Shown one piece after another: positions 1 through 64,000 of a DNA stretch of 64,000 bases. The notes under the pieces were generated by a model that did no database searches, was not told where the DNA came from, and worked only from the letters and a program-made list of their open reading frames with translations. Both the position numbers and the translations under genes were made by a program. Location of the stretch: NCBI GenBank assembly GCA_036785375.1, contig JAWMAR010000063.1, positions 6,200,001 to 6,264,000 of the forward strand, in the 5' to 3' direction. Source of the DNA: Leucoraja ocellata. Taxonomy: Eukaryota. How positions within the stretch are numbered: the stretch's first letter is position 1; each line of letters opens with the position of its first letter.

Positions 1-83
1 AATTCTCTGCTAGTTAAATACAAATGCATCTTGTAACGTCGCAACCGGAGTACTGGATTCAACAGATTGAAGCCATTCCTGGC

Positions 84-107
84 CAAAATCTTGCTCTAGT
101 ATCTTTG
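84..107. mobile_element. 24-bp P-element-like remnant or footprint
   Basis: CAAAATC...TATCTTTG flanked by perfect 8-bp TSD TTCCTGGC (76-83, 108-115). Confidence 0.6.
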
Positions 108-129
108 TTCCTGGCCACTGAGTGGAGAC

Positions 130-169
130 CAAGGATCATAGATCAGAGATCTCCGCTCTGGTATCTTTG
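130..169. mobile_element. 40-bp P-element-like remnant or footprint
   Basis: CAAGGATC...TATCTTTG flanked by perfect 8-bp TSD GTGGAGAC (122-129, 170-177). Confidence 0.65.
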
Positions 170-180
170 GTGGAGACTGC

Positions 181-204
181 ATCACGTGATTTGAATCATG
201 TGAC
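181..204. promoter_or_regulatory. Tandem CLEAR/M-box E-boxes upstream of PPT1-A
   Basis: ATCACGTGAT (181-190) and TCATGTGAC (196-204), 10-33 nt upstream of the ATG of a lysosomal hydrolase; match MiT/TFE (TFEB/MITF) or USF site consensus. Confidence 0.6.
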
Positions 205-213
205 TTGGGTAAA

Positions 214-334
214 ATGGCTGCGCACGGAGCGAGGTTGTTGCTGCTGCTCTTCTGCTCCGTCCTGGAAACATTATCATGGCAAACAGTCCGCAATAGCACG
301 CAGCCGCCTCCCGTGGTCATTTGGCACGGCATGG
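214..334 (+). CDS. PPT1: PPT1-A exon 1
   Basis: [40 protein letters not shown]; donor G|gtgagt. Confidence 0.92.
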
Positions 335-3300
335 GTGAGTACAAGGAAACAAAATATCAAATATATTGACAATTGAATATATTCAGGAAGTGATTGATCT
401 GATATTTCTGTCCCTCTTTGGTAACAAAATCGTTGATGCTTTATACTGATGTGCAACTCGTAAACAGTTAATTCAGAATTATTTAAAACGTCAATTGGAA
501 CCATTCAGTGTTTGGTGTAGCATTATTCTCCTTGATATGGTCTTGTAGTCTATGGTTATTTGTGATATTTGAAACGTAAATGCATGCATTTTTAGCCTTG
601 TATAAAACTAACTTCCTCGCATCGTCAACAATTCCCATTGCACTGTGTTCAAGCTTTGAGATCACGAAATATAGAAATGAAAGTTGTTAAGGCGCTCCCG
701 GGAAAATGATTCTAAATACGCATTTATTAAAGTTATGCAAATATTTTGTGCCAGAACTTGGAAACATACCGTTGTCTAGTGTTCTACCCTTACTTTTACA
801 TTCTAATGTAACTCATACAGATTTTTAAAAATCAATTGATCACTTTTATGAAAGAAGAAAATTAGTATGCTATTGTTAAGATTTTATATTGTGGTGATTA
901 CTATATTTTTATTATCCTGTACAATTTACTCACTTTAGGTGACAGTTGTTGTAAAGGACGTACCTTGCATTTCATCAAACTGGTGAAAGAAGCAATCCCA
1001 GGAATATATGTCTTGTCTTTGCAAATTGGAAACAGTATTAAGGAGGTGCGTGTGAGAAAAAATGGAATGATAACAACTGAGCCAACTTTTTTAATGTAAT
1101 TTTTTGTGCTCTTAATAATCATGTAACTGTTTTATTTTTTTTAAAAGGTTTGCACAAAAAATGATACTGAACAGAGCTGACATGGATTTATGAAATGAAA
1201 ACCATGTTTGACTATTCTATTGGAATAGTCTATTCTTTTAGGTACATCAAACTAAGTGAAAATGGGGGATGGGGTGTATTTAAATGTTATGCCTTTGACT
1301 CCTTTTTAAAGCATACCTTAAAATCTGCCCTTTAAACTACAGTTTAGGTTGTCCACTCTAATGACTACCTGTATCTTGTCAAATGTTGTTTGGTAACACA
1401 CCTGTGAAGTATTCTGAAACAGTTCATTACGTTAAAGGCACTACATAAGTAAATGATTTGTTGTACTGAATATTGTGGTTATTAGTTGTAATGAAGACCG
1501 CATATTTCTTTAGAAAATAAAACAAAGCGTTGGAAGTACACAATGGATCAGGCAGTATCTGCGGAGGGAATAGACAGATAATGTTTTGAGTCACGACCCT
1601 TCTTCAGACGATCTAAGGTTTTTTTGTGTCTATTTCTTTTAAAGTTGTTTAAAGACCCCTTTTAGCAAGTGGCCCCTAGTGATTTGGTGGCTGTAATGTA
1701 TAATGAGATGGATAAGATTTGGGCTAATTCTTTACCCTACTTTCCTAACCCATTGAATAATGTGACTTTTACATTTTGTTTAATCAATATCATTTGAAAG
1801 TAGATACTGAGTGCATGTAGGTTAAGACTTTTGTTCTCAGACTTAAAAAAAAAACCCAAAACAAATAATGGTGCTAAAAAGTTGAATGTTGCCTGAAATT
1901 ATCCCATAACGCACATTCACTTCTCTTGGTTTAATTTTAGGATAGGGAATAATGCTGAAGATGCTTTCAGGCTGAATATTTGGCAGATAAAACAAGATTT
2001 GTATATCCTCTTATACAGTTCCGTTTTATATTCAATTTCTGCAAATCATGGCTCCACACTGACCATCCCCGACACCCACCAGTTCCACCACCACCACCAC
2101 CACCAAATATGACTACCAATAAGTGTTTTCTTCATGGTTGCTTTGGGTAGTTTTATCGATAGCCCTGTTTTTATTAATCCATATAGTTATTTTTGCAGGT
2201 TTGTGATTGGAGGTAAATGTGGCAAAGACTAATGCTTTTGAATCTTTCATTCATTTTTGCACAAATCTGAGGCATGTCATGGGTGGGTAATGAAAAACAT
2301 AAGCATTCGATTATAAATTCAATTAGTTGGGCTACAACGTAAACCAAGAGTCTGCAACCAGAGAGCAGCTAATGCTATAGTCCAAGGAGTGAAGCTGTGA
2401 ACATATCTATGTGGTTCACCACATAGGTTCATAGTATTTTATTAAGATAAAAATGAAGTGGATGTTGCAAGATTAACACAATTTAGACATACTGAATTAT
2501 TATGTTAATTATTAAATGATTAAGAATTAAACTGCCAAGTTTCAAAAATCTAAAACACATTCTAGATGTATTGTTAATTATACAGTTCCTCAAAGCTGAT
2601 GTGTATTAGGAATCTTTCTTTTTAGGACATTAAGAACAGTTACTTCATGAATGTAAATGATCAAGTAGAGTTGGTGTGTAATATATTATCCAAGGATAGG
2701 AAGCTGAAGAATGGATACAATGCAATGGGCTTCTCTCAAGGTGGCCAGTTTATGTAAGTGTGACCAATAGGACCATTGCATTGGGGAAAAAAATGTCATT
2801 TGTAGAACGTATTCACATTCCAAAGTATTTTGCAGCCAATTAGAACAGTTTTGTAAAATATAGTCAAATAAGGGGTATTTTATAGTTGGCTGCTCAGTTG
2901 GCAGATGGAATTCTCTCATCAATGATTCTGTATCCATTACAGAAGAGCTGTAGCACAGAGGTGCCCTTCTCCACCTATGATTAATCTTATCACATTTGGA
3001 AGTCAACATCAAGGTAACATTTAAAGTTCATTGTACTATTTGTTCCATTTTTTTCTATTGTAAGGACTTATCTGCCAAGCTACACTGACTTCCCACACTC
3101 TACAATGCCCACGCCATTCTGCTTCCTAAACCGTTCTCGTATTTCAGATCAGATTCAATTTAATTGTCATTGTCAGTGTTCAGTACAGAGACAACAAAAT
3201 GCATTACCAACATATTTACCATTACCATCTCTCAAAAGCTACTGCAGGAAGCAGAAACTAAGGTGCATTATTGTGAAATTGGTAATAGTGTTCTAACGTT

Positions 3301-6300
3301 AACTTCAGTAAATCCATTCAGCAAGTTAATTTGGAGAAGCAACCTTCTTGAAATTTCCTTCAATTGAGATCAATCACTGCACAGAAACTGCATGCACACC
3401 AATGATGCACTCTAATCAAGAATGTTATCTCTATTTGTTCTATCGCTCCAAATTTGTCATGCCATTTGAACGCAGACTACTAAATTTAAAATGAAACAAA
3501 TAGTTAGATGAAGCATAAGGTCATATGGTAGTACAGAAGGAAAACAGGCCATTTGGCCCAACTCTGCCATGGCGACCATTGCACACCCTTCCATATTAAT
3601 CCCTTCTCCAGCACTTGGCACTCCAACCTTTTGTCCAAGCAATTTCAAGTCCTCATCAAGGGACTCTGCTTCATCCACTCTCGCAGGTAGTGCACACCAG
3701 CAGGCAAGATGAGTTAGAACCAATCTGGAACCAAACATGCAATCATTACCGCAAATCATATTGAATGTACCAAAAGCCTGAACCTGCAGATTTCACATTG
3801 TATCAACATTTTTATTAACACGGAGAAAAAATTCAGATCTTTAGATTAGATTATTTTATCTCTTGCACCTGTCTAGCCCCCCCCCCCCCCCCCCCCCCCC
3901 TTTCCACCTTCATTTTCATCACTAGGGGTGTATGGTGTTGATGGTGTATTGCATCAACTTTTTTATGAACAACGAAAACAATTCTGATCTTTCATTTAGA
4001 TTAAGTTATCATTCTATCTTTTGCACCTGTCTCTCCCCACCTTTCATTTCCACCATGAGGTGTGTACGGATTACCCCGCTGTCCTGGAGAAACTTCTCAA
4101 TTCTGTGATTGGATAAGGAAATTGCTGAACGTTGGTGCTTACAGAAACTCCATTCAAAAGCAGTGAGTACCAACACTTGTATTTGAAGACACTTCCATCT
4201 TGCACTTATTTCATGAATTGCCTGACTAGTCAAAATTAAGGCAAAATTGAATCAGTAAATATATTTTTGTGCACATATGCCCTTGTCTTTTCCAGTGGGT
4301 TTTTTAGAGAATCGCTGCAGGTTTCTCTTCTGGAACGTCACCTTTTCTAAACTACAGTTTTGGTTATATACTCTAACTTCGTGTATCTTTAGTTTAGAGA
4401 TACGGCACATAAACAGCCCCTTCTGCCACCGAGTCCTTGCCGATCTTCGATCACCTGTCAACACTAGTTCTGTTATCTCACTTTGATGCCTTTGATGTGT
4501 ATCTTTCCTTCAATTTGAAATTACTTTCTTACTAGTTTGGTGCAGGCAGAATACTGGCATGATCCTCTGAATGAAGAACTTTACAGGAGCAAAAGTGTTT
4601 TCTTGGCAGACATTAATCAAGAAAGGGTATGTGGTCAATATTATTTAATTATTTTGCTTCACGTTGGAAATTCCAAGTAGTGAACTCCATCCATTAAATG
4701 TATCCAGCCACCATTACGAATCACTTTGTATCTAATCATTTTTGTCCAGCACTGCGTTCCCTTTTGTATCACAGACTATCAATTTTGCTGCTGGTGTTGA
4801 GCATTGTTATATAGTGGCAACTGAGTTTCAATATGCAGAATAGATATCAGATGATATTTTAATCTGTGGTTTAAATGTTCCTTTGGGAATGTAACAGCCA
4901 CCAATATTGTGTTGCAGGGCATCAATGAAAGCTATAAGGAAAATCTGAAATTAAACAAGTTTGTAATGATAAAATTCTTGAAGGATTCTATGGTTGACCC
5001 TATTGATTCAGAGGTGAGAATGCAATGTTTTGATTCTGTATATTTAATGGTACTTTTTGGTATTAATAGTTGCAGTTTTATAAAGTTCTATAAAATGCTG
5101 CTTTTAGGACTTTCTTGTTCATATGGATATAGCTGTAATATCAGCTACACTTCTTCCCATCTGCATGAGCATCTAAATCTACTATCTGCTCCCTTATTTT
5201 ATTTTTTTTGGACTATAGTTTATGTGGAATAAATGGGTAATTGACAGAGAAGGAAACTCATGACCTAAAGCCCTATTGTCTCTCCAGTTACGGAAAGCTC
5301 GGCCATCTCCTCCAGCCTGGAGAGGGACCGGAGAGAGAGACATGATCTCTTGTAGTCCACAATACTCTTGCCTGTATCCTTGGTAGCTTAGGACAGCGTT
5401 GAGAATCTGTTCAGTTAAGAACTGATTTAATCAGAACAACAAAGTTGGTTATTTCCGGATAAAGTTACTAGGAAATCTAACAAGCATAAGGATTGATGGT
5501 AGTTCAGAATTCAGCAACAACAAACCAATATATTGATTAAGAAAGGTGGAAAATTCATATTAGAGTAATTTCACTTCCCATGGAGGTAGTGAAATGACAG
5601 TTTGTCAGACTGATTCTTGGGATGGATGAACTGTCATATTTAAAAAAAGGTTGGGTTCTTTCCACCTGAGTATTGAGTGAAGATCCTAATTTCTACTCCT
5701 ACTCTTAATTGTCTGCAGGCTCTTAAGTTCCTGTTAAAATGAAACTAAACATTTTAAAATAATTGTTTCAAAATTCAAGCAACATCACAAGCTGTACAGT
5801 GCTTTATATGACACAAAATGATTCATTCTGAATTCTGTTCCAGTGGTTTGGTTTCTATAAAGCTGGCCAGGCCAAGGACACATACACCTTGCAAGAGAGT
5901 GCTCTTTATCAGGAGGTAAAATTTAATTTTATTTGTAATTTCCCTTTTTCTATAATATACAAAGTTAATTGTTAATTGATATGATTTGTTGCTGTCAAAG
6001 CCACAATTTAATACTCTCTGTGCTGAGCCATCATTTTGATTTATTTCATTCTTTGGAGCAGAAATTTGATTTTGAGTGCTACAATTTATGACTTGGCAGT
6101 GAGTAAGGAACAATGACATGTTTCAGAAGTGTCTGACTTGGTGAATTTGCATCTGGTGGCATTCCCATGTGTGTGCTACCTATGCCCTTCCAAGTGGTAA
6201 AGATCTCAAATTTTGATGTTGAAATGTAAGATGATGTGCCAGAGGAAGGGAGAGTGAATATTTAAAGTAATGACTAGGGTTCCCATCAAGTAGGGTGCTT

Positions 6301-6930
6301 TGACCTGGATGATGGTTTGCAACACGTTCATCTAGGCTGCGGAATGTGTTTCAGTAACTCTTGGCGTCTGACTTGCTCAGTTGGCCAGAGTATTTAGGAT
6401 GGGTCAAATGAAGATTATGGGATGTGGCAATGCTAATACGCAGGTCTAAAACACTGCTGTTTTTCTGCACCCCCCATTTCAATTGTAATATTCTGATAGG
6501 AGTATAGCCAATCAGACTAGTTGTACCAAAATTTGGCTAGATTGGGTCCAGATTCAGTTGTTGGCGTGCACTATATTTCATGATCTCAACTGAAGAAATG
6601 GTGAGGTGGTCAGCTTACCTGCTTAGATCATTGTTTAGCAACCACTGGTGGAAATGCCAGTTGTGCAAGAATATTTATGGCTTGGATAAAACAGAACCTT
6701 TGGGAGGCAGGAATGGTAGTCAGATGAGCAATTTACCAGGAGCCACCAAAACCCCAAGAAATGAGTCTTGAATAGAAAATCAGTGAAAATATTTATTTTG
6801 TTTCCAGGATCGATTGGGGTTGAAGGCAATGGACAAACTGAACAAACTGGAATTTCTAAGCGTGGATGGAGATCACCTTGAATTCTCACAGGAATGGTTC
6901 ATCACCCATATAGTTCCTTACCTAAACTGA
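214..6930 (+). CDS. PPT1: Palmitoyl-protein thioesterase 1, copy A (divergent tandem paralog), 9 coding exons, 912 nt, 303 aa
   Basis: Exons 214-334, 939-1045, 2626-2753, 2943-3013, 4060-4162, 4536-4626, 4918-5013, 5844-5915, 6808-6930 join in frame through GT..AG introns. Signal-peptide-like N-terminus ([15 protein letters not shown]), [12 protein letters not shown], nucleophile GFSQGG, catalytic Asp (FLKDS) and His (GDHL). Exon sizes follow the vertebrate PPT1 pattern. Confidence 0.95.
939..1045 (+). CDS. PPT1: PPT1-A exon 2
   Basis: tttag| (G)[35 protein letters not shown] |gtgcgt. Confidence 0.92.
2626..2753 (+). CDS. PPT1: PPT1-A exon 3 (catalytic Ser)
   Basis: [42 protein letters not shown]; tag| and |gtaagt. 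Confidence 0.95.
2943..3013 (+). CDS. PPT1: PPT1-A exon 4
   Basis: [23 protein letters not shown]; cag| and |gtaaca. Confidence 0.95.
3800..4070 (+). repeat. Diverged tandem duplication (~135-150 bp unit) of the PPT1-A exon 5 acceptor region
   Basis: atcaac..gatcttt..ttagatta..ttgcacctgtct..ccacctt(t)cattt..AG|G(G/T)GTGTA(T/C)GG occurs twice (acceptors ending 3925 and 4059). Confidence 0.8.
4060..4162 (+). CDS. PPT1: PPT1-A exon 5
   Basis: [33 protein letters not shown]; weak gag| acceptor, |gtgagt donor. Confidence 0.9.
4536..4626 (+). CDS. PPT1: PPT1-A exon 6
   Basis: [30 protein letters not shown]; tag| and |gtatgt. Confidence 0.95.
4918..5013 (+). CDS. PPT1: PPT1-A exon 7 (catalytic Asp)
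   Basis: [32 protein letters not shown]; cag| and |gtgaga. Confidence 0.95.
5844..5915 (+). CDS. PPT1: PPT1-A exon 8
   Basis: [24 protein letters not shown]; cag| and |gtaaaa. Confidence 0.95.
6808..6930 (+). CDS. PPT1: PPT1-A exon 9 (catalytic His, stop)
   Basis: [40 protein letters not shown]. Confidence 0.95.
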
Positions 6931-7559
6931 TCTTGTTAATGCTGCAGCAGATGAACAAATCAATTTGACCTAAATCAAAGCATCTATTTCCTTGCAATAT
7001 AAATTCTATAAATACTAATTCACTCAAAATATAATTAAGTTCAAACATAAATCATCCTTGTGACCATTCTACAAAGACAGTACCTTTTTTGTATAAAGGG
7101 GATCAATTCTGTACACAGCTTCCTTATAAGATGTGAGGTTTGTCTTGAACCTTTATTTTATAATGTAAAAATCACACCTAAGACAATTTGATTGACATAC
7201 CACAGCCCCATGAAAACCATTCTTCATCTTATCTGTTTGTCCAAGTCCATTCATTTCTGTGTCAGTGAATTGGTCCACTGAAGGAAAGGTCAGCCTGTTC
7301 AAAGATTTGACCATCGTCTCACACAGATGGTTTGATGGGAAATACTCCGTGTTTCTAAACAGTTTGAAAAGCTGCTGAATCGGTTTCTGTTCAGCAATGA
7401 CTTGAATATTAACATTTCTAAAGGCTCGATAATTAATCCAGAGTTACTAGGTGCTATTTCTGTGGATTTGTAAGTTCTATAGCTTGCTAAACCACAGGTT
7501 CAGAGGAAGTTCCCAGTTCCTTAAACTGGTTTCCATTTGAAAAGTTCATTTAAAAAAAC

Positions 7560-7872
7560 CTTTGAGTGGGCTGCAACCCCTGCTTTCCCTCTCTCCGTCC
7601 CTCCCCTACCCTAGTTTCACTGTCCTCCTGATTAATTTTACTGTTGTATGCCTCGTCACCGACCCCACAGTGAACAATGAACCATTCTACATTTCCCTAA
7701 TCATCGTCTGCTTTGATCTGTCATATTCGTACCTTTCCCTTCGTTATGTCTAGTTTCCCTCCCCTGACTCTCAGTTTGAAGAAGGGTCTTGACCTGAAAC
7801 ACCACCCATTCCTTCTCTCCAGAGATGCTCCCTGTTCTGCTGAGTTACTCCAGCATTTTGTGTCTATCTTTG
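7560..7872 (+). mobile_element. Penelope-derived terminal repeat fragment in the PPT1-A 3' region
   Basis: Shares gaagaagggtct..gacc.gaaac..cccattccttctctccagagatgct..gagttactccagcattttgtgtct with many copies in the window. Confidence 0.7.
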
Positions 7873-8579
7873 CTGAGTATGAAGCTTGGTGACAAGACCA
7901 CAAAATCAGAACAGATTTTGAACTCTTTAATATTGGGTTTATGTGAAATGTTACTTACTTTTCTTAAATGGCAGTGTACATTAACATTTGCTATATACTA
8001 CTGAGATACCAATTACTAATTGGAAATAATGCAAATTTTGCATCTGAAATGTTGTGAACATTATGTACAATAAATTATAAAACGTGCATAAAATGCTGAA
8101 ATGGCCACAATTTTCTGTTAAGGTGTTGCATAGTGATTAGTAATGTTTTAAATTTTGAAATTGCGTTCTCATTTTTAAGATTAATGTTTTCAAAAGCTCC
8201 ACTGCATTTCAAAAAGACCACATAAAGCATGCATGTACATTTTCATTTTTTTCCTACTGTTGTATTAAATAAAATTCCACTTACATTTTGAAACTCATCT
8301 GCCTTTGTTTATTCAAACCACAATGTGGAATTATTTTATAGACACTTCTAACTCCTAGAATAAAGGTTTGCAGGTGTGGTGGGACCGAGAGACCAATAAA
8401 AAGTATGCACTTTTTAATTAAGCTGCTTTTTGGTAGCAAGAATACAATGTGGCAATATAAACTTAACATTGCTATCTTAACATGGATTCCATCTAGCTAT
8501 TTCCATTTTCATTTCATATTTTTGTTTCTACTGGGAACAAATGCATTGGAAAAGCCACCTGTGTGTAAATATATGTGAA

Positions 8580-8925
8580 ATAGATAGAATGTGGGATTGG
8601 GTGAATGCACAGTCTTTACCCAGTCATGGTATCAAAATCAGAGGACCGGTTTAAGGTGAGAAGGGAAAGATTTAATAGGCTTTAAAGGAAACCTGAGGGG
8701 AAACTTTTTTTATACAGAAGGTGGTGGATATATGGAACAAGCTGCCAGGGGAGGTGGTTGAGATAGGAACTGTAACAACATTTCAAAGACATCTGGACAG
8801 GTAAATGAATAGGAAAGATTTCGAGGGATATGGGCAAACACAGACTGGTGGGACATGTAGATGGGGCAACTGGGTTGACAAGGGCAAGTTGGGCCAAAGG
8901 ACCAGATTCTGTGCTGTATGACTAA
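8580..8925 (+). mobile_element. CR1-type (HER1-like) LINE 3' fragment
   Basis: ..tggaacaagctgccag..gtggttgag..acatttcaaagacatctggacag..gagggatatgggc tail, also at 13670-13935 and 29610-30065. Confidence 0.7.
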
Positions 8926-9717
8926 ATTGCCTAATAAGCATATGAGGAGAATCTGCAAGATAATGTTAAGATATGTATTCCTTTTCTCCAGCGATGCTGC
9001 CTGACATGCTGAATTACTCCAGCATTTTGAGTCTTATCACGTCAGCTTTTTGTGAATGTCATTGTTCAGCATCGCCCTTTCTGGTTAATTATTTCGCCGG
9101 TCATCCCGAGCCAACAAGCTACCAGAGATGCTGGAGTAACTCAGCAAGTCAGACAGCATCTCTGGAGAATCCCCTTGCATCTCTTCTCTCTCTGTCCATC
9201 CTTCCCCAACCCATTGTACTAGTATCACTGTTGTCCTGGTGAGTTTCATTGTATGTATAACTCATTTTCACCTAGCCCACAGCTAAAAATACACTGTTTC
9301 CTTTACCATGTTTAAGAAAGAACTGCAGATACTGGAAAAATTGAAGTAGACAAAAATGCTGGAAAAATTCAGCGGGTGAGGCAGCATCTATGGAGCGAAG
9401 GAAGAGGTGACATTCCGGGTCGAGACCCTTCAGACGTTTGTGGGGGTGGGGCGGGAAGAAGAAAGGAAGAGGTGGAGACTGGGAGAGCTGGGGAGGGGAA
9501 AGAGGGAGAAAGCAAGGACTACCTGAAATTGGAGGTCAATGTTCATAACGCTGGGGTGTAAAATACCCAAACAAAATATGAGGTGCTGCTCCTCCAATTT
9601 GCAGTGGGACTCACTCTGGCCATGGAGGAGGCCCAGGACAGAAAGGTCGGATTTGGAATGGAAGGGGGAGTTGAAGTGCTGAGCCACCGGGAGATCAGGT
9701 TGGTTATTGTGGACTGA

Positions 9718-9830
9718 TTTGGGGAAACTATTGAATGTATGTACAGCCTCCGAGAATGTCGGATGGAATTTTGTATGGATCTTGTATATAATTATTTCTC
9801 GTATAAAGTATATTTTGAAATTTAAAAAAA
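9718..9830 (+). mobile_element. 5'-truncated non-LTR retrotransposon tail (L1/Tx1-like) nested in the Penelope fragment
   Basis: Perfect 15-bp TSD GTTATTGTGGACTGA (9703-9717, 9831-9845); ends ATAAAGTATATTTTG...A-tail. Confidence 0.7.
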
Positions 9831-9952
9831 GTTATTGTGGACTGAGCAGCGGTGTTGGGCGAAGCGATCGCCAAGCCTAGAGCAGCTGACACCTAGAGCA
9901 GCGATGCAGTAAATGAGGTTGGAGGAGGTGCAGGTGAACCCCAGCCGCACCT

Positions 9953-10094
9953 TCTTCTTTGTCTTGCGCATGCCGTGCACAGCCTAAAGTTGGAGGACAA
10001 CTTGTTCTATTTGATCTTATTTGTTTGTGCACACCGGGTTGATTGCATTTGCCGAAACAGGGCGGACCACGTGAAGGTTGCAATCTCCCACCCC
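9953..10094 (-). mobile_element. Short non-autonomous retroposon with 5' HDV-like ribozyme and GAA-rich tail
   Basis: TSD GCCGCACCT (9944-9952, 10099-10107; extends to 13 bp with 2 mismatches); minus-strand 3' end ...CGCAAGACAAAGAAGA. Confidence 0.75.
10041..10094 (-). ncRNA. Minimal HDV/CPEB3-like self-cleaving ribozyme (predicted)
   Basis: P1 GGGGUGG/CCGCCCU (G1.U wobble), P2 GAUUGCA/UGCAAUC, P3 ACC/GGU, L3 UUCACGU, reduced P4 GU-UUCG-G, J4/2 CAAA. Confidence 0.78.
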
Positions 10095-10376
10095 ACCTGC
10101 CGCACCTGGAAAGACTAGTTAGGTCCTTGGATGGAGTCAAGTGGGGAGGTGAAGCGACAGGTGTAGCATTTCCTGCGGTTGCAAGGGAAAGTACCAGGGG
10201 AGGGGGTGGTTTGGGACGGAATTGACCAGGGAGCGGTCTCTGCAGATCATCGTTAATTTTATGCACATCTCTCATTCATTTGATCTATATCTCTATTTAT
10301 CACCGTCTATATCTCTAGTTTCCCTTTCCCCTGAATCTCAATCTGCCTGTCCCACTGCGTTTCCAGAGACGCTGCC

Positions 10377-10400
10377 AAAAGATCTTATTGCGGATCTTTG
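10377..10400. mobile_element. 24-bp P-element-like remnant or footprint
   Basis: AAAAGATC...GATCTTTG flanked by 8-bp TSD ACGCTGCC (10369-10376, 10401-10408). Confidence 0.6.
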
Positions 10401-10428
10401 ACGCTGCCCTGTCCCACTGCGCCGCCGC

Positions 10429-10438
10429 ATCACATGAC
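10429..10438. promoter_or_regulatory. M-box/CLEAR-like E-box upstream of PPT1-B
   Basis: ATCACATGAC (reverse GTCATGTGAT) just upstream of the ATG at 10447. Confidence 0.5.
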
Positions 10439-10446
10439 CCGGCAAG

Positions 10447-10567
10447 ATGGACGCGCAGGCAGCAGGGTTGTCGCTGCTGCTCCTCCACTTCACCTCCGCT
10501 TTGCAGACACAACCATGGACAGTCCAGAACAACACGCAGCTGCCCGTGGTCATATGGCACGGCATGG
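10447..10567 (+). CDS. PPT1: PPT1-B exon 1
   Basis: [40 protein letters not shown]; G|gtaaga. Confidence 0.92.
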
Positions 10568-13500
10568 GTAAGATAAACGAGGTCGCGGTCTAAATTGCGC
10601 CCAAATCGAATGTATTTAGCAAAGGCGCTCCCTGTCTCTGGGAAGGACACAGAGTGCTGGAGTATCTCAGCGGGTCAGGCAGCGCCTCTGGGGAACATTG
10701 AGAGGTGCTGGTCCTGGTCCGGACCCTTCTTCGGACTGTAGATACAGTCTACAGACTGTAGAACTGCAGATGTTGGTTTATATCACACAAGACACAAAGT
10801 GCTGGAGTAACTCAGTGGTTCAGGCAGCAACTTTGGAGATAAAGGACAGGCGACGTTTCGGGTCGAGATCCTTCAGACTCTTCTCCAGAAGAGTCCCGAT
10901 CGGAAACGCCACCTATCCATGTTCTCCAGAGATGCTGCCTGACCCACCGAGTTACTGAGCACTTTCTGTCCTTTGTGTATTAACCAGCTTCTGCAGTTAT
11001 TTGTGTCTGCATTCTCTGCGAGTTAAGTCTACCCGGAAACGAACCGTCTGTCTCTTTCGCTCTTTACTTCAATTCCATCTTATAACATCTTTTATCGCAA
11101 AAGTGTTTAAAACGTTGCGTTATATGCTCGATATATGCTTTAGAAACGTTCTAGATATCGGTCTATTATAACTGTTACAGCTATTTCGCTCAATGGGAGC
11201 ATTAAACCGTTTTCTGTGAGGCTGTTTTGTTCCTTTAAACTTCCGCCTTAGAGTCAGGCAAATCCTATTAGAGAGTAATCACGCGTGGTGACAACATACA
11301 AGGATAGCTTCAATGTAGGGACAAGGAAACTTAATCTAATTTTTTGCAGCATCCAAAATATTAATCTGCAAAACAATTGCTCCTTTTAAGTTTTTTGATT
11401 AAAAAAAAAAATGATGCTGCATGTGAACAAGTGAACATGCAAATAAGTTATAGGAGCAGAATTAGGCCATTTGGCCCATCAAGTCTATGCCACCATTCAA
11501 TCATGGCTAATCTTTCTTTCCCTCTCAACCCCATTCTCCTGCTTTCTCACTGTTACCCTTGACACCCTTACTAACCATACAGATATCTTTGGTAAAATGT
11601 AAGTATTCAGGGTTTTTTTGGGTTGCTGATTAAGGAAAAGGATGTGAGGAAAGAAATATCAACCATGTTTTTCCCTTATCCATGTATCTGTACGCTGTAA
11701 AAGGGTGGTGAAAGGAGAGGATGATGGCACCAAGGTTGATTTGAAGCATAAGCGAGTTTAGTGACTCAGTCAATCCTTCAATACGAATCGGGACAAAGAA
11801 TTCTTTCCAAACTGGCTCATGACATAACTTGATTCTCAAATCCAGGAATATACTATGTCTTGATAAAAAAAAAAAATAGAAATATGCTGGACTTGTAGTA
11901 TGGAAGGATATAATATTACAGCAAAACTGATCGTCTGCTCAGGGCTCTGATGCCAGGCTAGCACAATTGTCAATGTGCCTTGTTCCTTGTATTGATAATG
12001 CAAGACACTTAATTCACTAACAAAAAGCAAACTACTGGAAGAACTCAGTCTGTCAAGTAGCACCTATGGAACAGACAGTGTTTCAGGTCGGGTCTTGCAT
12101 TAGGACTAGGCAGAATTGGCTTGACCCAATCCTTGACGATCCCTTTGCTTCCACAGATGCTGCTTGACCTGCTGAGTTCTTCCTGCAGTTTTTTTTGTTT
12201 TTGCTCCAGACTTCAACATTTGCAATCGCTTACTCTTGCACAATTTTTTTTCCAGTTACTTCATAGTCAAATAGTAAAACTGGTGAATGAAAGGGAGTGT
12301 GGGGATCATGTCCTGTTGAGTGCGATGCTGAGTTATTGATATCTCTGAATAGTTGGATAGTTGATTATTGGAGTTTTGTTTTTATTTTATTTTTGACACT
12401 TGCATAACTAGTCAAACTGTTCCTTTGGAATATGCATGATGCTACTTGGACCAATTGATACACTTCAAACGATCAATCCTGCTTGAAGTGTCCATTCAAC
12501 ATTGTTAGAACAAAGAATATGTAATTGCAATAAACAGCATTGCTGCATTCAAGTGGAAGTGACAATAACACTAATGAGGAAGCTTGGAAATTGTTACGTT
12601 GATGCTGTAATATGGGAGGAAGTTTGTGAACTTTAGATAAACCATTTGGAATGGCTCGTTTCTGCAATTTTTAATGAAGACGTATGCAAAAGTAGCTCTG
12701 GTGATACTTCAGTACAGTCCTGAACTGTTTTGTACAAATTAACTAGGTGACAGCTGCTGCAATCCTCTCAGCATGGGATTCATCAAGAAACTGGTGGAAG
12801 AAAAAGTTCCCGGAACTTATGTTTTGTCTTTGGAAATTGGGAACGATATTACAGAGGTATGTTTGAATGAGAGAATGAATTGTAAATGTAGTCCAATTTC
12901 TTTGAAATTCTTTTAATGGTCATGATATTGGGATGGATCATTAAAGATCCAGAGACAAAATTAAATCTTCCCATAGTAACTAAATGGTTTAAGTTCCATT
13001 AAATATCTTGGAAAGATGTTTTTACAATAATATGACAGGTTGATTAATTTAATTCATGGTTCTTGTTTAATCTAATCTGAATGTGAATAATGCTAGAGCC
13101 ATTAGCATACTTCTGAACTCCTAGCAAGCCATACAAATCTAGGGCAACTTGGGAATGTCACTGAATACTTCAGTAAATAGATTCAAGAACAGTACATGGT
13201 GCCATAACTGGTGGCATACGACGTTGAAGGACGAGCAACAATTGAAGGCTGCAAATTAGAAGTGATGATCTAGTCCATTTCAGATGTTTGCAGTAGGGTC
13301 TCTGTTCCCAATTCCAGTCCAGCTATCCCAGTACAAACTTTTCAATAAGATATCTGTCCGCTTAGTTGAGATGGAGCTCAACTATGTTTCCTCATTTAAT
13401 AGTTCAATGCCCAGTCCCATTCAACTGTGCTTTAAACTGAAGTTCTTTAGTATGACCACGTAATTCAGATACTAGAGTATTCACTAAATTTTGCTCAAGA

Positions 13501-56676: not shown

Positions 56677-56976
56677 GTACTTAAGGACCATCATGTCAAA
56701 ATGTTTTAATTTTTTTTTGGGACTTACATCTCACTGTAATAGTGACAGTTTGAGTGAAATACTTCCATCTTTAAAGAAACAAATGACTGATTTAAAAACA
56801 GGAGGCATTGAACTGAGGATTTTGTTTGTGCATAAAATCCTCAGTTCAATGCCTCTTGTTTTTAAATCAGTAATTTGTTTCTTTAAAGATGCAAGTATTT
56901 AGCTCAGACTGTCACTATTGCAATGAGAAGCAAGTCCCAAAAAGAAAAACTTTTTGACTTGTTGGTCCTTAAGTAC
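56677..56976. repeat. ~300-bp imperfect palindrome (fold-back)
   Basis: gtacttaaggacc...gaggatttt|gtttgtgcat|aaaatcctc...ggtccttaagtac. Confidence 0.9.
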
Positions 56977-63021: not shown

Positions 63022-63530
63022 CTGGGGAAGACGGCAAACAACAAAAAAAGAAATAGGCACAAGTATGCACCTACTGAATGCAACCGCTGATTAATAACCC
63101 CGAGCACACACAATAACAATGCTGAGCTGCACGAGTGCAGTTCAAATACAAACTTTGCCTGCGGCCGCAGATAGAAAGACTAAGCTCAGCGCTCTCACCG
63201 TCAACGAGCAGTCGCTCCCCTGCCGCCAGAATCCACCCCGGAAGTGGCCCCACAACACCCTGCGCGGCACCGGCCGCTTCGGCTTCTTCCACTATCTCCT
63301 AATATGGAAGAAGCGGCCGTTGGGCTCGAGGAGCCGCCAGAAAGGTCTCCGTCGGATGTGAGTGGAAGGGCGGTGTTTCAGTTGCTTTACCCACCCCACA
63401 GTGCGATATAGCTTTCGGCAGGCTTTGCTGTTATAACCCGAACGTACAAAGTCCAACCCAGCGCCTGGAATGTGCCGGGGGTCCGGGGCTGAGAGGTGTG
63501 CAGAAGCTGGCTGGGTCGGCGCAGCCGTGT
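63022..63530 (-). promoter_or_regulatory. CAP1: Probable CAP1 non-coding exon 1 and CpG-rich promoter
   Basis: CpG-rich stretch; strong minus-strand donor CAG|gtaagc at 63022/63021; ETS-type CCGGAAGT at ~63238-63245. Transcription start not determinable from sequence. Confidence 0.65.
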
Positions 63531-63795: not shown

Positions 63796-63803
63796 CTTCA
63801 CAG

Positions 63804-63964
63804 CAATGACCCTAGGATCTAGGATGTTTAAGAAGGAACTGCAGATGCTGGAAAATCCAAGGTACACAAAAAAGCTGGAGAAACTCAGCTGGAGAAACTC
63901 TATAGATGCTGCTGCACCCGTTGAGTTTCTCCAGCTTTTTTGTGTACCTAGGATAGGATCTTTG
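63804..63964. mobile_element. P-element-like remnant containing a nested Penelope-derived palindromic insertion
   Basis: CAATGACC...GATCTTTG flanked by 8-bp TSD CTTCACAG (63796-63803, 63965-63972); internal ~63824-63948 matches the Penelope-derived terminal repeat. Confidence 0.55.
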
Positions 63965-64000
63965 CTTCACAGCGCTCTCCCCATTGCACACTGAGGGACA

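Follow-up and report, generated by a model that had tools for sequence, protein, structure and literature searches.

The systems closest to the locus described here are P-superfamily transposons. In Drosophila, donor junctions left by the P element carry both target-site duplications (TSDs), 17-nt tails, microhomologies and templated inserts, and most of the recovered products involve some synthesis (PMC2895639). The fly element targets a palindromic core, GTCCGGAC (PMC2577343), and its transposase makes a 17-nt staggered cut, an odd hallmark whose order and mechanism are given as not known in PMC7776569. Vertebrate P-like mobile elements are already known from zebrafish (PMC10983969), which has one full-length P-like gene whose terminal inverted repeats (TIRs) measure 13 bp and which supported excision but no integration in the assays described (PMC10983969, PMC7776569). 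Galileo carries long foldback TIRs and mostly 7-bp TSDs (PMC4168063). A literature search covering sources other than repeat databases (Repbase, Dfam) and most subscription journals found nothing on P elements in skates, sharks or other cartilaginous fish, and the family described below may itself already be catalogued in such databases.

We analysed a stretch of 64,000 nucleotides of Leucoraja ocellata DNA (the window) in which a preliminary description had reported four short elements near promoters. All four (E1 to E4) were re-located exactly. Each is flanked by perfect 8-bp direct repeats, and the four repeats are mutually different, which supports the view that they record independent events and are not copies made by a gene duplication. 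E1, found by sequence scan, is a 24-bp footprint at 84..107 between TTCCTGGC at 76..83 and its right TSD at 108..115; judged by eye, it splits into an arm of about 10 nt, with one base lost, and an arm of 15 nt. E2 (40 bp, 130..169) is a blunt join of two full 20-nt arms, and its TSD, GTGGAGAC at 122..129 and again at 170..177, matches the family target GTYNNRAC; its right arm agrees with a long element end at 18 of 20 nt, the match ending at nucleotide 20. E3 (24 bp, 10377..10400) lies between ACGCTGCC at 10369..10376 and its duplicate at 10401..10408, with arms of 18 and 9 nt, again split by eye, that have a 3-nt microhomology in common. E4 (63804..63964; TSDs CTTCACAG at 63796..63803 and its partner at 63965..63972) is a footprint of about 32 bp with short repeated filler that was split by a later insertion: 63825..63949 is a common dispersed repeat foreign to the P element, with 173 BLAST rows over E4 positions ~22-146. 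A scripted scan revealed no further footprint in the window, in line with the earlier by-eye impression that the introns lack them, and the identical scan of the reversed 274-kb sequence gave 0 hits. A structured-RNA reading was dropped, since among the window elements only E3 folds better than shuffled sequences.

The gene names assigned previously, PPT1 and CAP1, hold: PPT1 exon 2 matches 3GRO (E 6.6e-06), and a CAP1 exon was recovered at E 3.3e-17. The first coding exon of PPT1-A lies on the plus strand at 214..334 (ATG 214, GT donor 335; identity via exon 2), and that of PPT1-B, a paralog of PPT1-A exon 1 by alignment, at 10447..10568 on the same strand (ATG 10447). The PPT1-A ATG lies 130 bp past the start of E1 and 44 bp past the end of E2, and the PPT1-B ATG 46 bp past the end of E3, in agreement with the distances reported earlier. 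Two E-box motifs between E2 and the PPT1-A ATG (182..203), which we take to be CLEAR-like, are intact despite the footprints. For CAP1, a putative edge of a non-coding first exon was placed by motifs alone at 63190..63246 on the minus strand, with a donor-like site near 63199 and an ETS motif at 63238. Upstream of the ETS motif, E4 is ~570 bp away; its distance from the minus-strand splice donor is ~600 bp, and another repeat separates it from the inferred start region. E4 is thus upstream of CAP1, as had been described, but outside the core promoter. When the promoters of PPT1-A and PPT1-B were compared by alignment, no empty site could be aligned. The PPT1 duplication is tandem, and its two promoters cannot be aligned upstream of the common E-box. 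No transcription starts were called over window 1-11000, and RNA depth at the promoter sites was below 2.

The short elements belong to a large genome-wide class. The pattern CAAAGATC-N4-34-GATCTTTG (20-50 bp) has 5,929 strict matches in the window's genome compared with 15 for the reversed pattern. The consensus termini proposed in the preliminary description therefore stand genome-wide, but not letter for letter in the window, where the exact left end occurs in 0 of 4 elements and the exact right end in 2 of 4; strict patterns overlook decayed copies, all four window elements among them. Each length class between 20 and 40 bp holds 255 matches or more, compared with 19 at 41-70 bp, many of the longer ones being nested scars or repeated filler. 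The short elements measure 12-41 bp with varied junctions, and 26 of 35 sampled scars have an 8-bp TSD with at most one mismatch. All scar counts overstate independent events, because the assembly contains near-identical duplicate loci (6/20 and 7/30 loci in two samples). They are further inflated because scars inside autonomous elements are copied along with the element; such scars occur in the elements' own 5' region (L047:2389-2500, L050:8963-9073 and L053 ~1300), likely the transposase promoter. The resulting record of several thousand natural excision scars in one assembly appears to be new at this genome scale.

Autonomous partners sharing the termini, the existence of which had been left to be established, were found. 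Of the 150 candidates (from 216) that were scored for the transposase domain PF21787, 137 matched, and when 18 transposase loci were widened to 10 kb for an end search, five had both ends and a perfect 8-bp TSD (5.1-6.9 kb, four distinct TSDs), while a single end was found at at least 10 more. No CAAAGATC ends were present within 10 kb of the transposases at L046 and L062, which possibly represent other families or domesticated genes; L062 carries tandem P-type transposase copies. The TIRs of L053-L055 are identical over 28 bp. The L053 protein has THAP, HTH, RNase H N/C and GTP-binding insertion domains above the Pfam cut-off, with PF05485 (THAP) in exon 2 at E 1e-10, the remaining THAP cysteines in exon 1, and PF21787, PF21788, PF21789 and PF12017 accounting for the split RNase H and GTP-binding insertion. 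Against the fly transposase 6P5A it aligns at E 4e-44, keeping the fly's three catalytic residues D230, D303 and E531 (numbering per PMC7776569) as D, D and E, and it has a D(2)H motif in the form DPPH; its spliced frame across exons 2-3 could not be closed. Membership of the parent elements in the P superfamily, as first suggested, is borne out by THAP, split RNase H with DDE, TIRs, 8-bp TSD and palindromic target together. In the transposase linker (L053:4050-4340) we also observed tandem 96-bp (32-aa) repeats whose copy number varies among elements.

The family has been active both recently and over a long time, since the cores of L051, L052 and L054-L056 are 98.6-99.1% identical to that of L053 and other subfamilies are 76-95% identical. 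The near-identical copies occupy different TSDs. A duplicated segment (L054:3078-8196, and L055) contains a full-length element and two scars within 600 bp. Closer to the window, a 2,701-bp internally deleted member with a perfect TSD lies at G000:C63 about 6,169,473-6,172,173, 27.8-30.5 kb upstream.

Internally deleted relatives with the same ends are also abundant. One exact 34-nt end occurs 696 times in the genome; among 30 loci carrying it, 21 are paired MITEs of 366-643 bp, 19 of which have TSDs with at most one mismatch, and a partner end was not found at the other 9. The MITE ends match the autonomous ends at 72-92%. Stretches in C16, C9 and C22 that had been considered as 4-kb autonomous copies were ruled out and are separate MITEs. 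At window 56777-56880, CTTTAAAG repeats flank a 104-bp element whose inverted ends are unrelated to those of the P family; it is probably another MITE.

Given these MITEs, the short elements themselves might be mobile mini-MITEs inserted at their present size, each with its own TSD, and identical 38-mers and 34-mers do recur at different sites. We consider this very improbable. The complete TIRs and homogeneous size expected of MITEs are absent: the inner TIR (AAGATRG) and the subterminal sequence of every long end are missing from the short elements, their lengths range over 12-41 bp with varied junctions, and the recurring forms are those predicted by GC microhomology. Moreover, two duplicated loci that are 97.9% alike, L170 and L171, carry different scars at one site, explained either by two excisions or by two substitutions together with a later deletion.

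Arms of the short elements end at AGC just before the inner TIR, at 18, 19 or 20 nt depending on the subfamily, and in the long ends examined the AGC/AAGATRG boundary falls at 18 nt (7 ends), 19 nt (15) and 20 nt (60). After a 20-nt arm, a non-A base follows 3,115 times and A, the next TIR base, 144 times, a contrast between 20 and 21 nt that is inflated by a GC microhomology at the edge, which favours joins there. In the first 100 rows with a 20-nt arm followed by A, 4 continue through AAGATAG; by eye, most consist of a 20-nt arm and a right arm beginning with A or filler, and an additional A or two is present in a few. The 18-nt subfamily has 1,550 rows; none of the first 100 goes on into AA, and the A found in 7 of them comes from the right arm every time; in the 19-nt subfamily (n=73), A follows in 5 and an AAGAT continuation in 0. 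Junctions are blunt, joined at microhomology or bridged by templated filler, and because the blunt joins (18+18, 18+14, 18+7, 20+20 and 20+12) end at the same base, the edge is not solely an effect of microhomology.

Since the arms stop at AGC before the inner TIR, we interpret the short elements as excision footprints and not as tiny insertions, and assign a probability of roughly 85% to the reading that the four window elements are footprints of a young P-superfamily family. Another origin, either abortive gap repair by sister-chromatid synthesis and end joining or internal deletion, would make arm length uninformative about the cut. Some synthesis accompanies most fly products (PMC2895639), the MITEs and the 2.7-kb deleted element demonstrate that internal deletion occurs, and a few scars do have arms of 25-50 nt; repair of this kind would nevertheless spread arm lengths past the cut, whereas the arms end at AGC in three subfamilies, and we regard it as unlikely. 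If the scars are indeed products of excision, the non-transferred inner strand would probably be cut after AGC at a position set by the inner TIR, whatever its distance to the end: the 18-, 19- and 20-nt subfamilies all stop there, so that the cut appears fixed to the inner TIR and not to the end. This would fit the fly structure described in PMC7776569, where the HTH domain grips the inner half of the TIR. As read indirectly from the repair products in the scars, cleavage would differ from the 17-nt staggered type of the fly, with a long stagger of 18-20 nt by subfamily. Such subfamily-dependent cut length appears to be new.

Evidence of insertion came from sites that exist in both states. 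Among 73 footprints examined, at least 2 have an empty site: the L111 scar lies in a common repeat of which 24 of the 31 counterparts displayed have a single 8-mer, and within the duplicated segment L054 has a scar where L055 has one 8-mer. Empty sites, anticipated in the preliminary description, thus demonstrate insertion for two copies elsewhere, but comparison with organisms B, C and D revealed no empty allele for any of the four window elements. Over window 1-996 the aligned contigs show 3 gap letters in organism B, 8 in C and 29 in D; if that column counts letters, a stretch of 32 or 48 bp cannot be cleanly missing from any of them. Organisms B and C retain E1 and E2, and D does not lack them cleanly; the two elements therefore predate splits of about 1-3%. 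Organism B has 30 extra letters within window 10309-10672, as many as a 22-bp scar and an 8-bp TSD would add, and the organism D contig alignment begins at window 10408.

Pooling 70 distinct TSDs on both strands yielded the target motif GTYNNRAC (position 1 G 0.49 and T 0.03, position 2 T 0.66, position 3 Y 0.71), which resembles the fly core GTCCGGAC (PMC2577343); pooling forces the symmetry of this motif but not its GT bias. The flanking ATR/WAT part of the fly target has a weak echo in this family. We also considered whether a hAT-family element made the scars. Excision of hAT elements passes through hairpins on the flanks and leaves no long TIR stubs, which is at odds with the long stubs observed here. 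In addition, the ends bound P transposase genes, and P-type domains only, with no hAT domain, were reported between the TIRs. We give this origin a negligible chance, although an 8-bp TSD and a GT..AC target would also fit hobo and Hermes (table in PMC2577343).

The earlier suggestion of promoter targeting stands in part. In all of the following comparisons promoters are represented by proxies (CpG-island-like flanks or motifs) and p-values are uncorrected. CpG-island-like flanks were found at 13 of 35 sampled scars, compared with a background of 3.7% and with 2/35 distal flanks, so that the signal was gone 1.2 kb away (p 0.003). Scars occurred within 600 bp of a CpG-free promoter motif, presumably that of ZNF143, at 3/14 independent loci (six scars in total) versus 0/23 Ras-gene loci (p 0.047), the latter serving only as a gene-body control because their matches are mostly single-exon or internal exons. 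Strict scars lay 8-38 bp from a 10-mer that we assign to NRF1 at 4 loci where 0.77 were expected (p 0.008). On the other hand, 22 of the 35 sampled scar flanks are not island-like, the looser scan gave no significant contrast (3/14 vs 2/23, p 0.35), and the sole long element in 274 kb, the 2,701-bp member ~30 kb upstream of the window, lies in a common repeat with CpG-poor flanks, not at a promoter. The 10-mer is a poor promoter proxy, since 14 of 20 such loci overlap repeats; these 20 loci, from 41 clusters picked, yielded 0 strict and 2 loose hits, and the reversed control 1.

A contiguous scan of 274 kb returned 8 hits, comprising 7 scars in four clusters and one 57-bp hit at -63,642 that was dropped as chance for having no TIR interior. 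Three clusters are the window promoters, and the fourth, at -145 kb (L126:4680-6420, 143.6-145.3 kb upstream), contains three scars in a promoter-like CpG island adjoining an NRF1 motif and splice-donor-like sites. Without the three ascertained promoters the clustering is weak (p 0.04-0.19). Pfam matches over the 200 kb upstream were limited to a lysophospholipase exon and a kelch exon, and the kelch promoter was not located. One L126 scar of 12 bp has a target that is nearly the fly consensus, just before a minus-strand splice-donor-like site, and possibly lies within a 5' UTR; a near-perfect palindromic element of ~700 bp (L126:5363-6083) adjoins one scar. Several scars at one promoter were seen at L174, L176, L205 and PPT1-A.

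These data bear on a reading in which the footprints are real but promoters are not targeted, the association arising from a GC-rich target motif, passenger scars in CpG-rich repeats and a lucky window. In its favour, 12 of the 35 sampled scars lie wholly in repeats, several of these repeat-borne scars have one TSD in common, the island-like flanks consist of repeat DNA alone in 7 of 13 cases, and the flanks of MITEs are island-like in 5/30 only. The loss of the flank signal at a distance, the scars near the CpG-free motif, the excess at the 10-mer (its overlap with repeats notwithstanding), and a fourth promoter-like cluster 145 kb away with no other scar in 274 kb all weigh against it, and we consider this reading doubtful, with perhaps one chance in several. 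A genuine promoter preference is the probable explanation. The bias itself is modest and uneven, several-fold in three comparisons and weak or lacking in two; we read it as a several-fold lean towards promoter-like DNA with strong local clustering and not exclusive targeting.

Taken together, our results favour germline excision by a P-superfamily cut-and-paste family, a proposal that we hold as firmly as the footprint reading itself. Elements ending in CAAAGATC encode or borrow a THAP-P transposase and insert with an 8-bp duplication at the weak palindrome GTYNNRAC, apparently above chance in CpG-rich, promoter-like DNA. To judge from the footprint edges, the two strands would be cut at different places, one at the end of the element and its partner within the TIR, after AGC and before AAGATRG, so that 3' tails of 18-20 nt stay on the chromosome. 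Following fly precedent, the tails would be end-joined bluntly, through self-complementary microhomologies (GC, TATA, GATC) or with filler, leaving both TSDs and 12-41 bp. Promoters may then have kept footprints because these, unlike the parent element, could be tolerated there. More tentatively, and with odds somewhat below even, the sequences may reflect a vertebrate P transposon that is still competent, in which the inner TIR places the cut, so that the single-stranded extension varies (18, 19 or 20 nt) with the outer TIR, and whose scars form a fossil map of germline-open promoters and have added 20-50 bp, sometimes repeatedly, to at least a tenth of housekeeping promoters.

To our knowledge, scars of 12-41 bp fall below the size that repeat annotation usually records, so that promoter indels of such an origin may have been overlooked in this lineage. 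For three end types, the natural scars also point to where the enzyme would cut, and they predict a distance reckoned from the inner TIR. Within the literature surveyed, the fly enzyme is the only one with a measured stagger length. Young, multi-copy elements with open transposase frames could in addition provide a vertebrate P enzyme that may integrate, which zebrafish THAP9 did not do in the assays described (PMC10983969).

Compared with known systems, the family most resembles the Drosophila melanogaster P element. Both have a THAP-HTH-split RNase H-GTP-binding transposase with DDE (PMC7776569), a TIR of about 30 bp, an 8-bp TSD, a palindromic target with a GT..AC core and, to judge in the present family from proxies, an apparent lean towards promoters (PMC7776569, PMC2577343), and donor scars made of both TSDs and TIR stubs joined by microhomology or templated filler (PMC2895639). 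They differ in that the stubs here are 18-20 nt by subfamily and those of the fly 17, the TIR sequences are unrelated, and the fly scars described came from laboratory crosses whereas those reported here are natural and number thousands in one assembly. Pdre2 / zfTHAP9 are likewise P-like and from a vertebrate, with TIRs, an 8-bp TSD and copies that have lost internal sequence (PMC10983969, PMC7776569). The present family differs in its 137 domain matches, in TIRs of 28 bp and in having copies that sit at different TSDs and are 98.6-99.1% alike. The P transposases of invertebrates (Batillaria, Elysia, Homarus, Amphiura) have the same Pfam set and are the closest named matches listed, at only 33-41% identity; the closer matches (55-72%) are without names. 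Galileo is similar in its THAP and DDE domains, its D(2)H motif and its GT..AC target but has long foldback TIRs and mostly 7-bp TSDs (PMC4168063), unlike the 28-bp TIRs and 8-bp TSDs here. No protein named THAP9 was among the best 120 matches listed, and in contrast to THAP9, a single-copy gene without TIRs, the family is multi-copy with TIRs and TSDs. It is thus no domesticated THAP9, but a family that works like the Drosophila P element with tails of a different length.
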